A stretch of 39,422 nucleotides of DNA from a virus: the IMG/VR virus record IMGVR_UViG_3300045988_045917, positions 1 through 39,422 of that record; one strand, given 5' to 3'. Positions within the stretch are counted from its first letter, which is position 1. Each line of letters begins with the position of its first letter. Shown in pieces: positions 21,690 through 37,967 of this stretch. A program made the position numbers and the translations under genes. The notes beneath the pieces were generated by a model. The model was not told the DNA's origin, made no database searches, and saw nothing but the letters and a program-made list of their open reading frames with translations.

Positions 21690-22927
21690 GGTATGAAACC
21701 TCCTTTCTTGTTCCTGCTATAAATTGCATATCTAATAGCGTCTAGCCGGTCATTGTGTCTTACATCATTTTCTTTAAGTGGAAGTCCTGTACTTTCGTCC
21801 CAAGCATATTGATATATCTCATCAAGTAAGCCACTTGAAGCACCATCAACCACATAGAACTTTCCCTCTCGCATTTTCTTTGCTACGCATTCAATACCCG
21901 GTAAAACATTCTTATTAGCATTGATACAGTTAAGCCCGTTGGATTGAAACTCGTTCACATTATCAGGTCTGGCACTATCAGCATAAAAAATAAGATTGCG
22001 CCCGAACCTATTTTGTAAGTTCTGTGCAATCTTAACCCAGTAATTAATGAACTTGTGCTTCTGTGTGTAGTCTTCCAAGATGTAAGTATTACCGTCTTTA
22101 TCATCGCCCAGTAAGATAATCGGATTAGGGTGTTCATAACCCCAGTCAACGCCAACATAGTAATCTAAACCATCTGGAACACGATCTCTCGGAATTACCA
22201 TAGTGTCCTTATTAAAGTCTTGATAAACAATGCCGTCACCTGTAACCCATTGACCAAGTATTGAACGATCATAAAACATCCCACTTGGAGTAGCAGCTTT
22301 TAATGCTTCAACATAATCTTTTGAAAGGAATGTATTGTCGTCAATTGTAAAACTGAACGCCTTAATCCTTGCCTTAGGATCATGGTTATCAATGTAATCT
22401 GTCTTAAGCCAGTGTGTAGGAATATCAGGGTTTGTGTCACAGATAATTCTTGCTGATCTAACAGAACAACGCTGTACAATTTCCTGAAAAACTTCATGCG
22501 TTGCTAAACTTGCTTCGTTTATATAAGCCCCGTAAGAAGTCATACCACGAATAGCACCAATACCACGGACTGAACCTGTATAAGCTGGCACTATATCAAT
22601 ACCGAAAAGATGATAATGTCCGTGCCTGTCAGTCTTCATCACTATTCCAAATTGATTTTCTAGTGATGAGATGACGTTTGTGTAGATTGAATTGGAACTA
22701 TACCCCGCAAGGATATATTGAGGGTGTGGCTCCTTCTCGATCTCAGCAAGTTTTTTAATACGTTTAAGCTCTAGCAAGAAAAGATAGTTATCTATCACTG
22801 TCTTACCAGCACGAACAGCACCGTTTAAGATTAAGTACTTCCAATCATCATTAAGGTAGGATTGTAGCACCTTAATTTGTTTCTTCGTTAGTAGATTTAT
22901 CAGTGCCAACTTTTCCTGCCTCCTCAA
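21680..22927 (-). CDS. terL: Terminase large subunit (PBSX family)
   Basis: Walker A NGAVRAGKT. 415 aa, following terS. Confidence 0.85.
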   Translation of the reverse strand: MRRQEKLALINLLTKKQIKVLQSYLNDDWKYLILNGAVRAGKTVIDNYLFLLELKRIKKLAEIEKEPHPQYILAGYSSNSIYTNVISSLENQFGIVMKTDRHGHYHLFGIDIVPAYTGSVRGIGAIRGMTSYGAYINEASLATHEVFQEIVQRCSVRSARIICDTNPDIPTHWLKTDYIDNHDPKARIKAFSFTIDDNTFLSKDYVEALKAATPSGMFYDRSILGQWVTGDGIVYQDFNKDTMVIPRDRVPDGLDYYVGVDWGYEHPNPIILLGDDKDGNTYILEDYTQKHKFINYWVKIAQNLQNRFGRNLIFYADSARPDNVNEFQSNGLNCINANKNVLPGIECVAKKMREGKFYVVDGASSGLLDEIYQYAWDESTGLPLKENDVRHNDRLDAIRYAIYSRNKKGGFIPWN

Positions 22928-23369
22928 TTAGTTTATTCAATACCTGATCTAGTTGTTCGTTGTCCTCAGTTCCAAGCCGTTCAGCCACAATTGCTTTAGC
23001 TTCCTTAATTCGAGCATCAGCTTTAGTTTTTCTGATATTAGCTAATACCAACTCACGCTCTTCTTTAGATAACTGGCTGTCATTGTACTTGTCACGCCAA
23101 TTATTTTTCAGAAAGAAAATCATCGCTGTAGTGTTACCCGATAAGGCTTTTTTCAGCAATGCGTTCTCAACAATGATATTTATTTCATCTCGTCCTCTTT
23201 TTAATGCCTGCCCAATCTGTACATGCTCACGTTTCCACTTGTTTAAGGTATTAATACTAATACCCATGTTATGAGCTATTTCAGCATCAGTCAGACCGTC
23301 ACGCTTCCAACCTTGAAGAAGTACAAGCTTGTCTTTATCTAGCCACTCTTTATACATCGCTCTAGCCAT
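22872..23369 (-). CDS. terS: Terminase small subunit (HTH-containing); start set to ATG 23369
   Basis: HTH segment GLTDAEIAHNMGISINTLNKWKRE. GGTGGTG lies 9 nt upstream of the ATG. The track's GTG start lies inside the SD. Confidence 0.7.
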   Translation of the reverse strand: MARAMYKEWLDKDKLVLLQGWKRDGLTDAEIAHNMGISINTLNKWKREHVQIGQALKRGRDEINIIVENALLKKALSGNTTAMIFFLKNNWRDKYNDSQLSKEERELVLANIRKTKADARIKEAKAIVAERLGTEDNEQLDQVLNKLIEEAGKVGTDKSTNEETN

Positions 23370-23394
23370 TGCAAGTAACACCACCACCTTTATT

Positions 23395-23423
23395 GCAAAA
23401 TAAAAAGCCAGCTTATGCTGACT
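23395..23423 (-). terminator. Intrinsic terminator closing the moron cassette, about 25 nt upstream of terS
   Basis: The minus strand reads AGTCAGC-ATAA-GCTGGCT followed by TTTTTATTTT. Confidence 0.7.
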
Positions 23424-23426
23424 TAA

Positions 23427-23870
23427 TTACATTTTTTCAAGTGCTTTCAATAATATTTTTAATACTTTAAATTGTTCTGTTAAGGAAAATGCCAACGTTC
23501 CTCCAGTAATTGAGATAATAATTCTAGATAATAGACTAGTATCTTTTTCATTAAAGAGGAGAGCAACAAGTGCAAAGATTGAACACATCAAAAATCCAAA
23601 GATTGATAATAGCAATCTATCTAAAAATTTTTTATCCGTATTCAATTTCTTTAAGCTCTTTAATAATCTTGAATTAGGAAGCGCCGGTATAAGCGTAAAG
23701 CTTGCAAATAATAGTCCTGTTGTAATTGAAGAAAGAGACAATATGCCTGACATAACATCTGTATAATTATGTATCTTTATAGGAGTAATTTTTAAAATCA
23801 AAATTACCAGAATTGTAATAACGCCAACAAGAAGCGAGCCTCGGTTTCGTTTTAAACGTCCCTGTTTCAT
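23427..23870 (-). CDS. Small 4-TM membrane protein (147 aa), moron gene 2, candidate effector
   Basis: SD GAGGAGAGAGGG. Four hydrophobic segments (aa ~12-26, 39-64, 86-106, 112-130). Visibly more AT-rich than the flanking genes. Confidence 0.7.
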   Translation of the reverse strand: MKQGRLKRNRGSLLVGVITILVILILKITPIKIHNYTDVMSGILSLSSITTGLLFASFTLIPALPNSRLLKSLKKLNTDKKFLDRLLLSIFGFLMCSIFALVALLFNEKDTSLLSRIIISITGGTLAFSLTEQFKVLKILLKALEKM

Positions 23871-23902
23871 ATCCCTCTCTCCTCATTTTATTAAACTAAG
23901 AT

Positions 23903-24814
23903 CTATATAAAATTATGAACACAATAGTCATAATACTTATGATATGCTTTTTCTAAAAAGCCAAACATATTTTCGATAGTAACTATATTATCATACTCTA
24001 CATAGCCATGAAATACCAATTTATGCTGTACTAAATCAACAGGTTCAAAAACACCGTCATCATCTATTCCTTCAACTTTCAACTTTGTAATTCCTAAATT
24101 TTCACTATTTTTAAATAGTAATTTTGCTTTAGCAATAATATCTTTTAATTTTAGCGAATCTGCTTGTAAACATACAGTCATTTTTTGGGCACCGACATCG
24201 TTAGCATATTCCATATCTTTTATTTCATCTCTTGAATTATCTTTAATTGAAGGCAAATTATTTATTTTTGCTACTGAATACGTTATCGAAGACGTATCTT
24301 GCATTTTATCTAATTTGTTAATTGCAATTTCATCTGGAATGATTGCTAAGTTTAATCCTCTAATTTTACAAAATCGGATGAGAAAAGATTTAAATAGAGC
24401 TTTATTAACACCACCAGCAGTACGAGCAAAAGCGCAGATGTGAGTATGAGTATCATACAGAAATTGTGTATTTACTACGCTACCTTGATCGTCAGTTATA
24501 GGAAGTGTTTCATTGCGTTGCTCAATATTCTTTTTCATATCGCCAACTTGAATGGGACTAGTCGGATCCAATCTGCTTAAGTTTATTAACCAAGCATAAA
24601 TTTGACCACTTTCATCAACGTAAGCTTTATTCATAGAATTTATGTAATACTTATTGTCTCCTATTTCAATCGTCTCAATCTGATCGGAATGATGAGTTTT
24701 TAATAAATTATAAGTAGTACTTATCTTATCATCTAATTTTTTTAAAGTTTCGTCTTTGCCTTCAATATGATAAAAATTGACAGTACGAGGCTTCTTATTT
24801 TTATATTGGGTCAT
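23903..24814 (-). CDS. Uncharacterised soluble 303-aa protein, moron gene 1, candidate sensor/defence protein
   Basis: SD GGAGGGAG 7 nt upstream of the ATG, with a TATAAT box at 24833-24838. AT-rich. I recognise no catalytic motif. Confidence 0.7.
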   Translation of the reverse strand: MTQYKNKKPRTVNFYHIEGKDETLKKLDDKISTTYNLLKTHHSDQIETIEIGDNKYYINSMNKAYVDESGQIYAWLINLSRLDPTSPIQVGDMKKNIEQRNETLPITDDQGSVVNTQFLYDTHTHICAFARTAGGVNKALFKSFLIRFCKIRGLNLAIIPDEIAINKLDKMQDTSSITYSVAKINNLPSIKDNSRDEIKDMEYANDVGAQKMTVCLQADSLKLKDIIAKAKLLFKNSENLGITKLKVEGIDDDGVFEPVDLVQHKLVFHGYVEYDNIVTIENMFGFLEKAYHKYYDYCVHNFI

Positions 24815-24852
24815 CCAATACTCCCTCCTAATATTATATAGATTTATTTTAT

Positions 24853-24881
24853 CAATAAAAAAAGAAGGTTACATCCTTCTT
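24853..24881 (-). terminator. Intrinsic terminator ending the structured-RNA/tRNA unit
   Basis: The minus strand reads AAGAAGG-ATGTAA-CCTTCTT followed by TTTTTTATT. Confidence 0.75.
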
Positions 24882-24922
24882 CATGAATAATATTAGGAAA
24901 AGCCAAGAAATTTCTCAGCTTA

Positions 24923-24996
24923 TGGTAACTGATGGAATCGAACCACCGCTAACTTGGTACTTCACACCAATGCTCTACCAACTGAGCTAAGTTACC
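24923..24996 (-). tRNA. Phage-encoded tRNA-Phe(GAA)-like gene with atypical features
   Basis: Cloverleaf read by eye:
- Acceptor GGTAACT/AGTTACC, 7 bp perfect.
- D-arm GCTC-AGTTGGTA-GAGC.
- Anticodon arm TTGGT-GTGAAGT-ACCAA.
- T-arm GGTGG-TTCGATT-CCATC, discriminator A.
- U8, A14, G18G19, U33 and T54-C56 are present.
- Oddities are G32 and a 6-nt variable region (GTTAGC). Confidence 0.7.
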
Positions 24997-25203
24997 CAGA
25001 CTAGGAAAGCTGCTATACTTAAGCTTCGCTTTTACGATTGCCACGGCATCTCAGTATCAGATTTAATGCAGAGTTACGTGTCATCGCCGACTTACTGCTA
25101 GCCATTAAAACAATCAACCTATATAGAAAAGAAATGTTTAGATTAGCTTTTGTCACAAAACGAACAAACCTGGGAAAAACCGTAAGAACAAAACGCCAAT
25201 CTA

Positions 25204-25311
25204 GAGGATACATCGGAATTGAACCGATAAGAGATAATCGTTGTTGGCATACTTAGCTATATCTCGGTAGAACTGCCACTACCCCAGCTCGCCAATGGCT
25301 GGCTATATCCT
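25204..25311 (-). ncRNA. tRNA-like module TL4 (108 nt): full cloverleaf-like fold with an 8-nt anticodon-position loop and a 35-nt extra arm
   Basis: Elements read by eye:
- Acceptor AGGATAT/GTATCCT (7 bp, one GU).
- D-arm CCAG-CCATTGGCGAG-CTGG (Leu-type D-loop).
- Stem GGTAG/CTACC with loop TGGCAGTT.
- Extra arm GAGATA-(23 nt)-TATCTC.
- T-arm ATCGG-TTCAATT-CCGAT. Confidence 0.5.
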
Positions 25312-25430
25312 AGAATGCTCTGTTAGGCACAGAGCTAAACCAGATGCAATTCTGTAAATTAAAATCAGACAAACAAAATATATTCGTGATCTGAACAATA
25401 TTATTTTTACGCCTGCTTTCCGACAGGCAA

Positions 25431-25455
25431 TGGGCAGGCGAGGAATTGAACCCCA
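25431..25455 (-). ncRNA. tRNA-like module TL3: T-arm plus acceptor 3' strand
   Basis: TGGGG-TTCAATT-CCTCG, then CCTGCCC plus A. The upstream part shares GGCGAGC...GCTGGGG-AGT with TL4. A possible 5' partner is GGGTAG (6/7). Confidence 0.4.
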
Positions 25456-25661
25456 CTAAACATTGTGAAAGAAAATTCCTACTTTCTTTCTAAATTCCAA
25501 ATTGTGCCAATCTACCCACGGCAGTTGCTGCTGCGGTCCAGCCAACAACTCCCCAGCTCTTCCTACGCTCGCCTCGAAACCGTTGAGGGTCGTGGCATAG
25601 GCGTCATTTACCTAGGCAACTATTATATACAATAGCCAATAATGGACTACCGCCTAGGCTA

Positions 25662-25686
25662 TCAAGCAATCAGGATTCGAACCTGA
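25662..25686 (-). ncRNA. tRNA-like module TL2: T-arm plus acceptor 3' strand only
   Basis: TCAGG-TTCGAAT-CCTGA, then TTGCTTG plus A. The upstream sequence is AT-rich with no D or anticodon arm. Confidence 0.35.
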
Positions 25687-25797
25687 GTGCCTGAGTCAAA
25701 TAAATAAGAAAAAGTAAAAAATAAAAGAATTGTAAGCCAAAAGCCAAAAATAAAATTCATTTAGAGGAATGTTTATCGCCTGAATTTACTCAGGCTA

Positions 25798-25845
25798 TAA
25801 CCGCCAGTCGGATCGAACAACTGCTAACGTCTACCAAGAACGGTT
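25798..25845 (-). ncRNA. tRNA-like module TL1: minihelix-type element lacking an anticodon arm
   Basis: AACCGTT / GGCGGTT acceptor (7 bp, two GU). D-arm remnant CGT-TCTTGGTAG-ACG. Variable region TTAGC, the same as in the Phe-like tRNA. T-arm AGTTG-TTCGATC-CGACT, discriminator A. Confidence 0.4.
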
Positions 25846-25986
25846 ACTTTAATCTGTTACTTACTGAAACAAATTAAGAACTGTATTAATTTCGAAAGGA
25901 GATTTTCTTTCAAACGTACCGCACGTAGTACTGTCAAGGTGAAGTCGAAAGATCGTAACCACCACGTCTAATCTTTCGACAATAAC

Positions 25987-26043
25987 AATTTATCATGAAA
26001 CGTACGCAAGCAGTGCGCAAGGTTTACGCAAGCTTTACGCACG
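25987..26043 (-). promoter_or_regulatory. Candidate activator-dependent (late) promoter: four phased CTTGCGYA repeats plus an extended -10
   Basis: The minus strand reads GTGCGTAAAG CTTGCGTAAAC CTTGCGCACTG CTTGCGTACGT at a 10-11 bp period, then TGATAAATT (TG-extended -10). There is no -35 consensus. It lies directly downstream of the ArpU-like gene. Confidence 0.5.
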
Positions 26044-26044
26044 A

Positions 26045-26575
26045 CTAATTTTTCCGGATCTTAATTTTATCCGGCCATACTGTTTTTACCTTTTGACTGA
26101 AAACTCTTAAGTCTGGTAAATCATCAACACCAAAGTATCTTTTCCAGTAAAGCCAACGATCAGCGAACTCACATTGTGCGTTAATCTTCTTAGTATCAAT
26201 TGACCTAGTCGACAGATTAACTGTAGCTGCTACATCAACAATGCGTAATTGATCAATGTATGTTCCAATTAAGATACGTCTGTAAGGCTTTAATGCTGTG
26301 TCAGTGCAATTATCCATTGTTCGATAAATTGCTGCACAGACCTTTCTAGCAGGATCAGCAATGTCGATATCGTCTTGTGCTTCGTCAATGAAATTCTTCT
26401 CAACGCCATTTTTGTTTGTTGATCCTGGTGCGAATGATAATTGAGGGCTTGTAAGTTGATTACGGTGTAAGCCAGCTAAATTAAGATAGCTCTGAAAATT
26501 AATAGTCAGGAACTTATCCACCCTTTTAGCAGTAGCTCTTAAATTTGGCTGTAATCCTAAGTCAATTTGATACAC
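26045..26575 (-). CDS. ArpU-family late transcription regulator (GTG start)
   Basis: 176 aa, the last gene of the early region upstream of the packaging genes. The sequence pattern is consistent with phage ArpU/RinA-like regulators. SD GAGAGGGAG. Confidence 0.6.
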   Translation of the reverse strand: MYQIDLGLQPNLRATAKRVDKFLTINFQSYLNLAGLHRNQLTSPQLSFAPGSTNKNGVEKNFIDEAQDDIDIADPARKVCAAIYRTMDNCTDTALKPYRRILIGTYIDQLRIVDVAATVNLSTRSIDTKKINAQCEFADRWLYWKRYFGVDDLPDLRVFSQKVKTVWPDKIKIRKN

Positions 26576-35476: not shown

Positions 35477-35646
35477 CTCTTCACCGCCCTTTCAAGTTAA
35501 ACGTTTTGTTTAATTAACTTACATAATTATAATAACACATTTGGTTTAAATTACAATACTTTTTTAAACTTATTTTTTAAATTTATACATTTTTTGTTTA
35601 AATGTTTTACAATAAGTTTAACAAAATAGCGATGGAGGTGCTTTCA
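35477..35646. promoter_or_regulatory. Genetic switch region with divergent promoters and repeated GTTTAA-containing operator candidates
   Basis: Seen in the region:
- Palindromic ATTATAAT at 35526-35533, a -10 box on either strand.
- Inverted repeat AAGTTAA (35493-35499) / TTAACTT (35514-35520).
- TTGTTTAA(A/T) at ~35504 and ~35593, and inverted at ~35616.
- TACAAT at 35608-35613. Confidence 0.5.
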
Positions 35647-35991
35647 ATGAGTGCATTTAGCAATCGATTAATTGCATTGCGTGAGGAAAATAATCTCAGC
35701 AAAACAGCAGTCGCAAAAAAATTAGGTTTGAGTGTTCAACGCTATGCCAATTGGGAATACGGAACTCGTGAACCAGATTTAGAGAACTTAGCTGCCATAG
35801 CTAAATTATATGGAGTATCAACCGATTATCTAACGGGACAAAACAATGACCGAGATAAACAATCCGTTGACCTAGAAAAAGACCCTGTCGTTCTTAGTTA
35901 CGGTGGACGCCCTGTATCAGATGAAGATATGGACGTTATCAAGGCTATCCTTGAAAGACATAAGAATGATGGAGAACCCCATTACGAGTAA
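35647..35991 (+). CDS. cI-like repressor (XRE HTH); start at ATG 35647
   Basis: GGAGGTG lies 6 nt upstream. HTH LSKTAVAKKLGLSVQRYANWEYGTREP. It is followed by an ImmA-like gene. Confidence 0.75.
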   Translation: MSAFSNRLIALREENNLSKTAVAKKLGLSVQRYANWEYGTREPDLENLAAIAKLYGVSTDYLTGQNNDRDKQSVDLEKDPVVLSYGGRPVSDEDMDVIKAILERHKNDGEPHYE

Positions 35992-36449
35992 TGCCTATGT
36001 ATAACAATGATTTACTACTATATATATGTCACTTAATCGAAGATCAAGGTCTGGGTGTCATACTATCTCGATTAGAAGACAGACATTTTCGTTCTAGGTA
36101 TCTTCCTAAACAGAAAACTATCATTATTAACACAAACTGGTGGTATCCTCCAGAAGTTCCATTTATGGCTGCTCACGAATTAGGGCATTGCATAAATGGC
36201 GATAAAGGGGTTATGTACTATGCGTATGATTATGACTGGCAAGAACATGATGCCTTTAATAGAAACGATGACGCATTCAAGGAAGATCAAGCCGACCTGT
36301 ACGGCTTAAATCTCATTTGGGACTATGCCTCTTCCCAAGGTTATACTTGCGAAGATCCTGGAGAGTTTATGTTACATTTTGGCATTCCTGAAAGAATGAA
36401 AAAAATTGTTGCTAAAAAGTTTGAACGTAACAACGATTTACTATTTTAG
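35991..36449 (+). CDS. ImmA/IrrE-family zinc metalloprotease (anti-repressor protease)
   Basis: HEXXH motif AAHELGHC. Translationally coupled to the repressor gene. Confidence 0.75.
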   Translation: MPMYNNDLLLYICHLIEDQGLGVILSRLEDRHFRSRYLPKQKTIIINTNWWYPPEVPFMAAHELGHCINGDKGVMYYAYDYDWQEHDAFNRNDDAFKEDQADLYGLNLIWDYASSQGYTCEDPGEFMLHFGIPERMKKIVAKKFERNNDLLF

Positions 36450-36457
36450 GTGGTTTT

Positions 36458-37192
36458 ATGTTTATCGGTATTCTTATTGTAATTATAGTCTTTCTATTTT
36501 TTTATATTTTAGGTAGCAAGTCTGCTTCCTCTAATAATGAAACTAATTCTATCTCTCATTCTGAAAATGATGATAAGTATTCAGAATATTTTAAAATAAT
36601 GGATTTAAGGCCTAAATTTAGAGATTATTACGGCAGAGATATGGACTATCCCAAATATAATGATAAATACAATACGGGAACTGAATTTAAGTTGCGACAG
36701 TTGTTGTTATTAGTATGGTTTAGTAGAACCAAAAAAGGACGTTTAGTGACTACATCAATTCCTCAGTATTTTTACTACGATTACAACATTAATGGCAATA
36801 AACTTTTGCAACACTTTATTGCTAGAGGTTGGATAATCGAAGATGACGAAAGATACATATTGTCTGATGAAGGAAAAAAAGTTGCTAAACAGTATGCAGC
36901 TTTGTGGGAATTACACAGAAATAATCAATTTCCATTCTGTTTAGATGAAGATTATCCAAATTGGAATGATGGCAAGCTCTTAAAAAAATATTACGAAAAA
37001 GAAATACAATATTTCAAAGCATTCATCGAATATGATAAGAAACTGATTAATTTTTATAAAGAAACTCCTTCTTACTTTACAAGTAAAGAAGAACAACAAC
37101 ATGAAATTCAAGCTGAAAAAGCTGATATAGAGAGATTAAAACATCAAATAAATAAAGATAGAGATAAGATATCACTTGAAGTCCAATTCTGA
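36458..37192 (+). CDS. N-terminally membrane-anchored 244-aa protein of unknown function (lysogeny-module accessory gene)
   Basis: TM segment FIGILIVIIVFLFFYIL. AT-rich. Co-oriented with the repressor and so presumably expressed in the lysogen. Confidence 0.65.
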   Translation: MFIGILIVIIVFLFFYILGSKSASSNNETNSISHSENDDKYSEYFKIMDLRPKFRDYYGRDMDYPKYNDKYNTGTEFKLRQLLLLVWFSRTKKGRLVTTSIPQYFYYDYNINGNKLLQHFIARGWIIEDDERYILSDEGKKVAKQYAALWELHRNNQFPFCLDEDYPNWNDGKLLKKYYEKEIQYFKAFIEYDKKLINFYKETPSYFTSKEEQQHEIQAEKADIERLKHQINKDRDKISLEVQF

Positions 37193-37235
37193 TGACTTTA
37201 AAAGCTGATGTGAATGTTTTACTCGGAGGATAATT

Positions 37236-37967
37236 ATGGGATTATTTGATAATTTAAGCCAAAAAATTACTGATGCATCAGCTAAGCGCAAAGAAGCAAA
37301 AGCTGAAAAGAAAAAGCAAAGAGAACAAGAAGATCAAGAATATGAACAATTGCTAAATACATTTCTTGCTAATAAAGCAACTCAATATTCAAATATTTAT
37401 TTTGATCTAAAGTCTAATCAAATATTAATAGGTCGTCGACTTTTGTCTCGAGAATATAGACTACTTAGTTTTTCTGATATTCAAACTTATGATATTAGTC
37501 AACAAGACCACAATGAGACAGAAACAAAAAGTACAAGCAAAAAGAAACATACGATTACTCGATCCGTTGCCGGTGGTCTAATTGCTGGTCCTGTTGGAGC
37601 TGTCATTGGTGGCGTTACTGGAAAAACAAAAGGTCATTCAAATTCAGTTACTAAAGAATATCTTGATTATTTAGGACTATCTATTATGCTAAAAGATGGC
37701 TCGACTTTTGCCATTCCCTTTCTTACGCAAACAACTAAAAGTGACAGTTATACTGCTCAAAATGCTTATAACGAATTGTATGACATCATGGCAATAATTA
37801 AAGCAGGAATGAATGCTACTAAACAACAAGAAGAAAATATCGCAGATTCTTCATCAAGTAACACAAGTCCTTTAGATGAAATCAAAAAATTAAAAGAATT
37901 ACTCGATATGAATGCCATTACACAGGAAGAGTTTGAAGCTAAGAAAAAAGAGTTATTAAATTTATAA
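37236..37967 (+). CDS. SHOCT-domain protein with a glycine-zipper segment (lysogeny-module accessory gene)
   Basis: The C-terminus LDEIKKLKELLDMNAITQEEFEAKKKELL is SHOCT-like. GGLIAGPVGAVIGGVTG is a glycine zipper. Confidence 0.65.
   Translation: MGLFDNLSQKITDASAKRKEAKAEKKKQREQEDQEYEQLLNTFLANKATQYSNIYFDLKSNQILIGRRLLSREYRLLSFSDIQTYDISQQDHNETETKSTSKKKHTITRSVAGGLIAGPVGAVIGGVTGKTKGHSNSVTKEYLDYLGLSIMLKDGSTFAIPFLTQTTKSDSYTAQNAYNELYDIMAIIKAGMNATKQQEENIADSSSSNTSPLDEIKKLKELLDMNAITQEEFEAKKKELLNL

Follow-up and report, generated by a model that had tools for sequence, protein, structure and literature searches.

A two-gene cassette upstream of terS in a Lactobacillus prophage as a probable distant relative of the lambda RexA/RexB exclusion system

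Here we describe a two-gene cassette (positions 23395-24881) in the viral record IMGVR_UViG_3300045988_045917, whose full length of 39,422 nucleotides (nt), referred to below as the window, holds an almost complete Lactobacillus prophage with flanks 84-93% identical to the L. gasseri / L. johnsonii phages phi jlb1, JNU_P11, KC5a and Lj771. Profile comparisons, a predicted structure and the organization of related loci suggest, with fair likelihood, that the cassette represents a distantly related, Gram-positive form of the two-component phage exclusion system made up of RexA and RexB of phage lambda, and its role would most likely be to protect the host cell against other phages. The two genes, which we call A and B, are listed here with their ribosome-binding sites.

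24823-24828, minus strand: ribosome-binding site of gene A, GGAGGG, 8 nt before the ATG (sequence)
23903-24814, minus strand: gene A, 303 amino acids (aa), soluble, putatively RexA-like and DUF6731-related (open reading frame (ORF); phrog_11507, E 2e-40; profiles; AlphaFold2 model)
23873-23884, minus strand: ribosome-binding site of gene B, GAGGAGAGAGGG, inside the 32-nt spacer between A and B (sequence)
23427-23870, minus strand: gene B, 147 aa, putatively RexB-like membrane protein with four hydrophobic segments (ORF; hydropathy; profiles)

Both ORFs, of 303 and 147 aa, and their strong Shine-Dalgarno sequences were found within a base or two of where a preliminary description of this DNA had placed them. 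Measured against the L. johnsonii WXY copy, which has 93% nucleotide identity, the ratio of nonsynonymous to synonymous substitution rates (dN/dS) was 0.024 for A and 0.157 for B, so both are real genes under purifying selection. The A protein has no hydrophobic segment. Searches of both proteins against Pfam, NCBIfam and the defence-system models of PADLOC gave nothing significant (for A, no Pfam match below E 0.1), and PHROGs returned only families of unknown function. For the comparisons that follow, we built a profile of A's close relatives (A1), a profile of 78 family members (A3) and a profile of a 25-sequence RexA family, all PF15969 (A4). PDB sequence searches with the single A protein and with A3 yielded chance-level matches only.

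A word-indexed search with A returned 24 homologues, of which the named ones belong to Lactobacillus. The family proved far broader when A1 was run against 1.84 billion cluster representatives: 282 proteins, nearly all of about 290-320 aa, matched at E <=0.001. This count of clusters at 50% identity is our figure for the breadth of the DUF6731-type family, and it includes proteins from S. pyogenes M1, L. plantarum, Enterococcus and Lactobacillus prophages. A genome-contig profile search with the same profile found two loci only. Among the 78 members of A3, 37 match PF20505 (DUF6731; best E 1.8e-65) and a few also touch DUF4747 weakly; the A protein of the window itself has no PF20505 match at the Pfam gathering threshold. 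Judged by these profile relationships, gene A is an outlying branch of the DUF6731 family, whose named members come from L. plantarum, Enterococcus songbeiensis, Paenibacillus ehimensis ('DUF6731 family protein') and Lactobacillus species. A literature search found no mention of DUF6731.

DUF4747 has been reported, by HHpred, in lambda RexA, Sbash gp30, CarolAnn gp44 and Butters gp30, each of which is paired with a four-helix membrane protein (PMC7542560, PMC6426606). Since some members of the A family also touch this domain, we tested the link between A and RexA directly by profile comparison. Aligning A3 with A4 in hhalign gave a probability of 96.5% (E 9.8e-10, score 70.4) over 228 collinear columns, running from 44-305 of A3 to 38-278 of RexA. 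The controls scored far lower, at 16.3 when either alignment was reversed and at most 20.5 in 25 column shuffles. The score rose as rows were added to the A alignment, from 18 with 12 rows through 32 (20 rows), 34 (30 rows) and 49 (45 rows) to 70 with both 60 and 78 rows, and the alignments of this series span residues 8-308 of A against 2-278 of RexA. Against the single lambda RexA sequence, A3 still reached 56.8% (E 1e-4), and pairwise BLASTP of A against RexA was not significant (E 0.34). A shared motif can be seen by eye (RexA GFARTVFGPTTSDLTDFL, A AFARTAGGVNKALFKSFL), and the best-conserved blocks of both families are aligned with each other (RexA DDESLGFPSFLFVEGDTIGFARTVFGPTTSDLTDFL, A DDQGSVVNTQFLYDTHTHICAFARTAGGVNKALFKSFL). 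On these profiles, the A family is very probably homologous to RexA at the superfamily level, over nearly its full length.

The predicted structure of A points in the same direction. An AlphaFold2 model based on the 78-sequence alignment reached a predicted local distance difference test score (pLDDT) of 90.4 and a predicted template modelling score (pTM) of 0.82. Its N-terminal part is an antiparallel multi-stranded sheet flanked by helices; an alpha/beta domain is inserted at about 155-274, and residues 280-302 form a long C-terminal helix. The top Foldseek match in the PDB was E. coli RdgC (2owl_B; E 2e-4, probability 0.99), followed by Iml3 and CENP-N, and a shallower first model gave the same ranking. 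RdgC, Iml3 and CENP-N are published structural relatives of RexA, and the order of secondary-structure elements in the A model matches that published for RexA, with a split globular domain, a dimerisation domain and helix alpha8 (PMC11077077). A Foldseek search of BFVD returned uncharacterised phage proteins (down to E 2e-18) together with phage RdgC; lambda RexA was not returned by this search. We predict from the model a two-domain fold of the RdgC/RexA/Iml3 type. RdgC is A's best structural match, at a TM-score of about 0.32, so its domain arrangement differs, and a profile comparison of A3 with the single E. coli RdgC sequence found no similarity. RdgC genes are not known to be paired with a membrane protein.

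Hydropathy analysis (Kyte-Doolittle) places four hydrophobic segments in B, at about 13-29, 39-64, 86-106 and 112-131, two of them strong and two weaker, in agreement with the small partner with four transmembrane helices predicted in the preliminary description. Its positively charged N-terminus and central loop predict a topology with both ends inside (N-in/C-in). B has 17 close homologues, and all partners of A-family genes form one alignable family, 144-165 aa long after trimming of N-terminal ORF extensions, with hydrophobic segments at about 10-29, 40-65, 86-108 and 113-135. Lambda RexB has 144 aa and segments at 9-25, 50-66, 84-100 and 117-133; set beside them, those of B fall at 13-29, 39-55, 90-106 and 112-128. 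We compared the B family (24 sequences) with a RexB set of 12 sequences, consisting of the genes downstream of rexA in 11 viral contigs and lambda RexB. The comparison gave a probability of 88.5% (E 2.8e-6, score 41.8) over 51 columns, a stretch that covers the first loop, passes through the second membrane segment and ends in the cytoplasmic loop. Reversed controls scored 15.5-15.9 and column-shuffled ones at most 16.7. The probability grew as the B family diversified, from 5% through 26% to 88.5%, the first two values having been obtained with few sequences. Taken together, the profiles make homology between B and RexB probable.

The pairing noticed in the preliminary description recurs wherever we examined a locus, which contradicts the refuting case named there, that the two genes lack synteny in other genomes: a B homologue adjoins A in all ~35 independent loci with a readable neighbourhood, which represent several Firmicutes genera and three kinds of genomic site. 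The loci with an adjacent pair, cited by our locus numbers, are as follows.

Lactobacillus prophages: L005, L007-L010, L014, L015 and L059
Upstream flank chromosomal-looking rather than phage: L011-L013
L. plantarum prophage: L062; Paenibacillus chromosome: L065
Metagenomic DUF6731 loci: L057 and L061, with 22 further loci from metagenome and viral scans

The B partners of L077, L084 and L088 were identified by hidden Markov model (HMM) search of six-frame translations. In four loci of one DUF6731 sub-clade (L070, L071, L072 and L075), A and B are convergent, tail to tail, and the partner still aligns with the family. By tblastn, we found an A homologue in ten Streptococcus prophages (8 of S. 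pyogenes, including M1 GAS, and one each of S. dysgalactiae and S. uberis) and also in phages of Enterococcus, Staphylococcus and Psychrobacillus. The S. pyogenes prophage Javan489 (MK448775.1) carries an unannotated B homologue (L093:3907-4383, plus strand; HMM E 1.9e-28) after its A homologue and before terS; at the place where the plus strand encodes this protein, GenBank instead lists a 70-aa ORF on the other strand. An A homologue is also present in nine further Javan prophages of Streptococcus (S. pyogenes, S. dysgalactiae, S. uberis).

The pair lies upstream of terS in the window, in L059, L005, L007 and L015, in the L. plantarum prophage L062 and in Javan489. The preliminary description had called this site unusual; it turns out to be the commonest one for the family in Lactobacillus, L. 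plantarum and S. pyogenes prophages. In Enterococcus phage EG-TP1 (PQ571292.1, L094:3007-4414), the pair is located between endolysin and integrase, a classic lysogenic-conversion site, where the record labels it 'SepS25B protein' and '7TM_GPCR_Srx domain-containing protein', apparently artefacts of automatic annotation by structure. Chromosomal neighbourhoods are found in Paenibacillus (L065), between deoC and a lactonase gene, and in L011, beside DegV and lactate permease genes. This distribution fits mobile accessory cargo and is unlike that of a core phage function.

In the window, most genes lie on the minus strand, and the right end is formed by the lysogeny module and the integrase. The surroundings of the cassette are organized as follows.

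26045-26575, minus strand: ArpU-like late activator (phrog_248), first in minus-strand order around the cassette
24997-26044: non-coding stretch of about 1 kb without a convincing ORF, between the ArpU-like activator and tRNA-Phe
24923-24996, minus strand: tRNA-Phe (GAA), a backbone gene just upstream of the cassette (ARAGORN; Rfam tRNA, 59.6 bits)
24851-24882 (hairpin 24861-24882), minus strand: upstream hairpin and T-run, the intrinsic terminator of the tRNA gene (terminator scan, fold)
24846-24854 (TG 24853-24854, hexamer 24846-24851), minus strand: candidate extended -10 promoter TGATAAAAT, read from the sequence
24833-24838, minus strand: TATAAT hexamer, a doubtful promoter element (sequence)
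23395-23424 (hairpin 23405-23424), minus strand: downstream hairpin and T-run, right edge of the hotspot (terminator scan, fold)
ATG at 23369, about 25 nt past the downstream hairpin, minus strand: terS, followed by terL and the portal gene
35602-36449: helix-turn-helix (HTH) repressor and M78 pair, about 11 kb from the cassette

We placed the breakpoints of the cassette by BLASTN against the sister phages. Backbone homology covers the activator gene and most of the non-coding kilobase, ending at about 25136-25300, and the tRNA-Phe segment is common to the window, Lj771 and JNU_P11. The segment 24918-23427 is unique to the window among the sister phages compared, and homology restarts at 23426 (KC5a), 23408 (Lj771) or 23368 (phi jlb1 and JNU_P11). 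In the same slot, phi jlb1 (L001:3417-4992) and JNU_P11 (L004:3275-4850) carry a ParB-like protein and an 855-nt gene, and Lj771 (L002:3785-4636) carries a DNA methyltransferase; a methyltransferase-like gene accompanying a ParB-like protein and other small genes are also among the cargo of the sister phages. The 855-nt gene jlb1_025 is named 'beta-glucosyl-HMC-alpha-glucosyltransferase' in RefSeq and hypothetical in GenBank, and the RefSeq name looks doubtful. The tRNA genes downstream of the late activator vary as well (Gln-Glu-Phe in Lj771; Gln and Tyr in KC5a; Glu in phi jlb1; Phe in JNU_P11). In L007, the slot holds a tRNA Trp and an odd 94-nt call, 'tRNA-Asp(atc)'. Because the sister phages carry other cargo and other tRNAs here, this is a hotspot of variable cargo. 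In L. johnsonii WXY (L059), the block 25007-23382, comprising the tRNA, A, B and the hairpin, is 92% identical to that of the window, whereas its terS has no DNA-level similarity to the window's, which argues that the block moves between backbones. The cassette occupies, as exchangeable cargo, a hotspot bounded by terS and by the tRNA gene(s) that follow the ArpU-like activator.

With a G+C content of 29.6%, the cassette has the lowest value among all 1487-nt windows of the sequence (mean 36.6%, standard deviation 2.4), compared with 38.8% for terS and terL, as the preliminary description had noticed. A terminator scan of 22800-26200 returned exactly two terminator-like hairpins, 24861-24882 and 23405-23424 (both minus strand), each with a T-run behind it; two is no more than expected from shuffled sequence (1.6 +/- 1.4), and the fold energies are modest (upstream -9.4 kcal/mol, z -2.4; downstream -11.7 kcal/mol, z -3.8). 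The hairpins on both sides had been described as terminators that insulate the cassette. They are present, but both belong to the backbone: the upstream one simply terminates the tRNA-Phe gene, and its layout of hairpin and T-run recurs before the A homologue in L059, L007 and L015; the downstream one is common to KC5a (23426-23379) and Lj771 (from 23408) and is a backbone element, since it is kept in these two phages with different cargo. The cassette lies between the two hairpins and brings none of its own.

The proposed promoter likewise changes position. TATAAT does occur at 24833-24838, but it ends 4 nt short of the ribosome-binding site, its best -35 element at 17-nt spacing is TTTTTA and not usable, and a promoter scan did not call it. 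As the main promoter of the cassette we reject it on position, because a start about 7 nt downstream would sit inside the ribosome-binding site. The extended -10 TGATAAAAT lies directly after the tRNA terminator, with a predicted transcript start at about 24839, which would give a leader of some 25 nt with the ribosome-binding site in it, and by consensus it is the likelier candidate. An extended -10 stands at the equivalent position in L059 (TGATAGAAT), L007 (TATGATAAAAT) and L015 (TGTTATAAT), whose surrounding regions are otherwise diverged. In all three, the A homologue is preceded by hairpin, T-run, extended -10 and ribosome-binding site in this order, and the retention of this layout in diverged regions favours autonomous transcription of the cassette. 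Only about 25 nt separate the T-run of the downstream hairpin from the ATG of terS; as this leaves no room for a promoter, late transcription must read through the cassette and the hairpin. The hairpin after B could act as a terminator that is leaky or regulated, or it could mark a junction of recombination. As regards the classification as a moron, the cassette is absent from relatives and low in G+C, its promoter is a conserved extended -10 candidate, and both hairpins are backbone.

Among known systems, the one that resembles the cassette most closely, lambda RexAB, had not been named in the preliminary description. In RexAB, too, a soluble protein of about 280-300 aa is encoded directly before a four-segment membrane protein of about 145 aa, with both genes on one strand of a prophage, so the order with the soluble gene first, which had seemed unusual, is that of rexA-rexB. 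Lambda rexAB differs in lying in the immunity region, beside and co-transcribed with the repressor, whereas the cassette is found in the late region, with tRNA-Phe on one side and terS on the other, and its host is, unlike that of lambda, a Gram-positive of low G+C. By January 2026, five Rex-like systems had been described (lambda, Sbash, CarolAnn, Butters and P. putida), none of them from Firmicutes, and four of the five use the membrane protein as effector (PMC12894663). RexABpp of the P. putida prophage P1 (PP_5643/PP_5644) is, like the cassette, a prophage pair of a soluble protein linked to RexA only remotely (by HHpred) and a four-helix partner. This partner has no HHpred-detectable homology to RexB, and the system protects against phages through membrane damage that needs the membrane protein (PMC12894663). 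PP_5643 is reported to form a clamp around DNA. By analogy, we consider RexABpp the best precedent for validating the cassette pair, although it differs in its Gram-negative host, its cryptic prophage and its position.

The pairs Sbash gp30/31, CarolAnn gp44/43 and Butters gp30/31 also combine a soluble with a four-helix membrane protein. They are expressed from prophages, defend against unrelated phages and have a weak HHpred link to DUF4747 (PMC6426606, PMC7542560), a domain that some members of the A family match too. Their soluble proteins are larger (370-403 aa; membrane partners 165-187 aa), and Sbash and CarolAnn were compared by description. Homology to Butters gp30, with which the preliminary description had drawn an analogy, was tried and rejected: A3 against this single sequence, a comparison of limited sensitivity, gave a probability of 0.06% (E 0.74). 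The analogy with Kiwa, drawn there as well, holds in outline only. Kiwa combines a four-helix membrane sensor with a dimeric, non-specific DNA-binding effector of about 300 aa, KwaB, which consists of a Rossmann-like domain and DUF4868 (PMC11785009), and in Kiwa the membrane protein comes first in gene order. We rejected an identification as Kiwa, as the window proteins had no PADLOC match, Pfam gave no DUF4868 and no Kiwa entry was among the Foldseek top 50. PADLOC applied to distant A members returned one weak, unrelated match (PDC-S06) only, and a literature search for KwaB together with RdgC found nothing relevant. By its profile relationships, the pair is Rex-type at the superfamily level, with a new sequence clade (DUF6731 and its partner), new hosts (Firmicutes) and a new genomic position. 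The two-gene defence or abortive-infection candidate of the preliminary description thus gains support from the remote RexA/RexB homology, the strict linkage and the placement in a hotspot, from which we infer its function.

Building on lambda RexAB, Sbash gp30/31, CarolAnn gp43/44 and P. putida RexABpp as templates (PMC12894663, PMC11077077, PMC6426606), we propose the following mechanism. The pair would be transcribed in the lysogen, probably from its own extended -10 promoter. A would form a DNA-binding dimer that recognises a superinfecting phage by a DNA or DNA-protein intermediate, or else by one specific protein, and would then engage or activate B. B would damage or depolarise the membrane, whereupon ATP would fall, growth would stop and the infection would abort, sparing the lysogenic population.

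Several observations weigh against this reading. The profile A1, made of the window protein and its close relatives, is not significantly similar to RexA (0.5%, E 0.11), so the RexA link rests on a chain through distant DUF6731 members. Both proteins are beneath the detection limit of the RexA and RexB models of Pfam (PF15969/PF15968) and PADLOC, which miss A and B at E up to 1 yet recognise the lambda proteins. TM-scores of the A model to RdgC are low (0.30-0.33), and while the Foldseek ranking of RdgC, Iml3 and CENP-N agrees with a Rex-type fold, the RexA structure 8TWQ, which is in the PDB copy searched, is absent from the top 50 matches; the closed conformation of the RexA crystal may be the reason. 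The match between B and RexB, a local one of 51 columns, does not reach the customary 95% confidence. The cassette lies inside the late transcription unit, so that its two genes could be expressed late. Nor does homology settle which way the signal runs, because the Butters effector is the soluble protein and the Kiwa sensor is the membrane protein.

This last point leads to a reversed logic, in which B would sense a disturbance of the membrane as a phage enters, or hold A inactive, and A would be the effector, clamping phage DNA and blocking replication or late transcription without killing. The predicted RdgC/RexA DNA-clamp fold of A would suit such a role, and there are precedents in Butters, where soluble gp30 alone excludes phages and gp31 modulates (PMC7542560, PMC12894663), and in Kiwa, with its four-helix sensor and DNA-binding dimer as effector (PMC11785009). 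We nevertheless consider it unlikely, given the lack of PADLOC matches to Kiwa and its absence from the Foldseek top 50, the different architecture of KwaB, the lack of profile similarity between gp30 and the A family, and the use of the membrane protein as effector in four of five Rex-like systems. A role in the phage's own life cycle, either as a RexA-like lysis-lysogeny modulator with a RexB-like membrane partner (RexB also shields lambda O and antitoxins from ClpP) or in late packaging or lysis timing, seems to us to have a similarly small chance of being correct. Lambda RexA without RexB biases the switch to lytic growth, and the authors of that work doubt that exclusion is its primary function (PMC11077077). 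The pair is directly upstream of terS in at least 6 separate prophage lineages, and the short gap between hairpin and terS means that late transcription must cross the cassette or start within it. Yet the pair is missing in phi jlb1, KC5a, Lj771 and JNU_P11 and is hence dispensable for this type of phage, it also occurs at the endolysin-integrase site of EG-TP1 and in non-phage chromosomal neighbourhoods (Paenibacillus and L011), and a conserved promoter-like element of its own follows a terminator. The absence from sister phages and the presence outside prophages make a life-cycle role less likely.

DNA-entry blockers of phages of lactic acid bacteria are usually single membrane proteins or lipoproteins. 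That the pair is a superinfection-exclusion pair at the membrane which blocks DNA entry, or else a toxin-antitoxin or addiction module, with the Rex similarity reflecting an ancient DNA-binding fold only, is the least probable of the explanations weighed here. Strict two-gene linkage and spread as mobile cargo are typical of such modules too, and the RdgC/RexA/Iml3 fold serves unrelated DNA-binding roles (PMC11077077). However, A and B each resemble the corresponding Rex partner, in the same order and at the same sizes, and neither had a PADLOC match at E up to 1, nor A a Pfam match below E 0.1. As a tentative and rather doubtful extension of the Rex-type reading, DUF6731 and its partner of about 150 aa might constitute a large, unrecognised Firmicutes-wide Rex-type branch with a preferred slot directly before terS. 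Since late transcription must cross the cassette, the pair might on this view also be on in the lytic cycle of its own prophage, where it would exclude competing phages or satellites during induction or couple the state of the membrane to packaging, a wiring unlike that of the immunity-region rexAB of lambda.

Two further regions of the window deserve mention. The non-coding stretch 24997-26044 contains no ORF of more than 72 aa, is 89-93% identical in phi jlb1, KC5a and JNU_P11, and shows an AT skew of opposite sign to the neighbouring sequence; a search against Rfam found no family apart from the adjoining tRNA. Directly after the activator gene, a 17-nt direct repeat (TACGCAAGC...) occurs at 26003-26019 and 26025-26041. 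This region may contain the late promoter together with sites for the activator, or a site for packaging, or an RNA of unknown kind. Between the repressor/M78 pair and the integrase, the plus strand (36458-37967) encodes a 244-aa protein without a Pfam match and a 243-aa protein with a C-terminal SHOCT domain, which are further candidates for lysogen-expressed accessory or exclusion genes.

The kind of system proposed here is a classical one, and the gain lies in the link between DUF6731 and RexA, in how widely the family extends, S. pyogenes prophages included, and in testable Gram-positive models. If the reading is correct, DUF6731 and its unnamed membrane partner would become a RexAB-type system that occurs widely in the prophages of lactic acid bacteria, enterococci, Paenibacillus and S. 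pyogenes, and that PADLOC missed here. An unannotated gene would also be flagged in S. pyogenes prophage records. Such a system would bear on the phage resistance of dairy and probiotic lactobacilli, and it would provide Gram-positive models for the 70-year-old question of how infection is sensed by RexA and how RexB acts.

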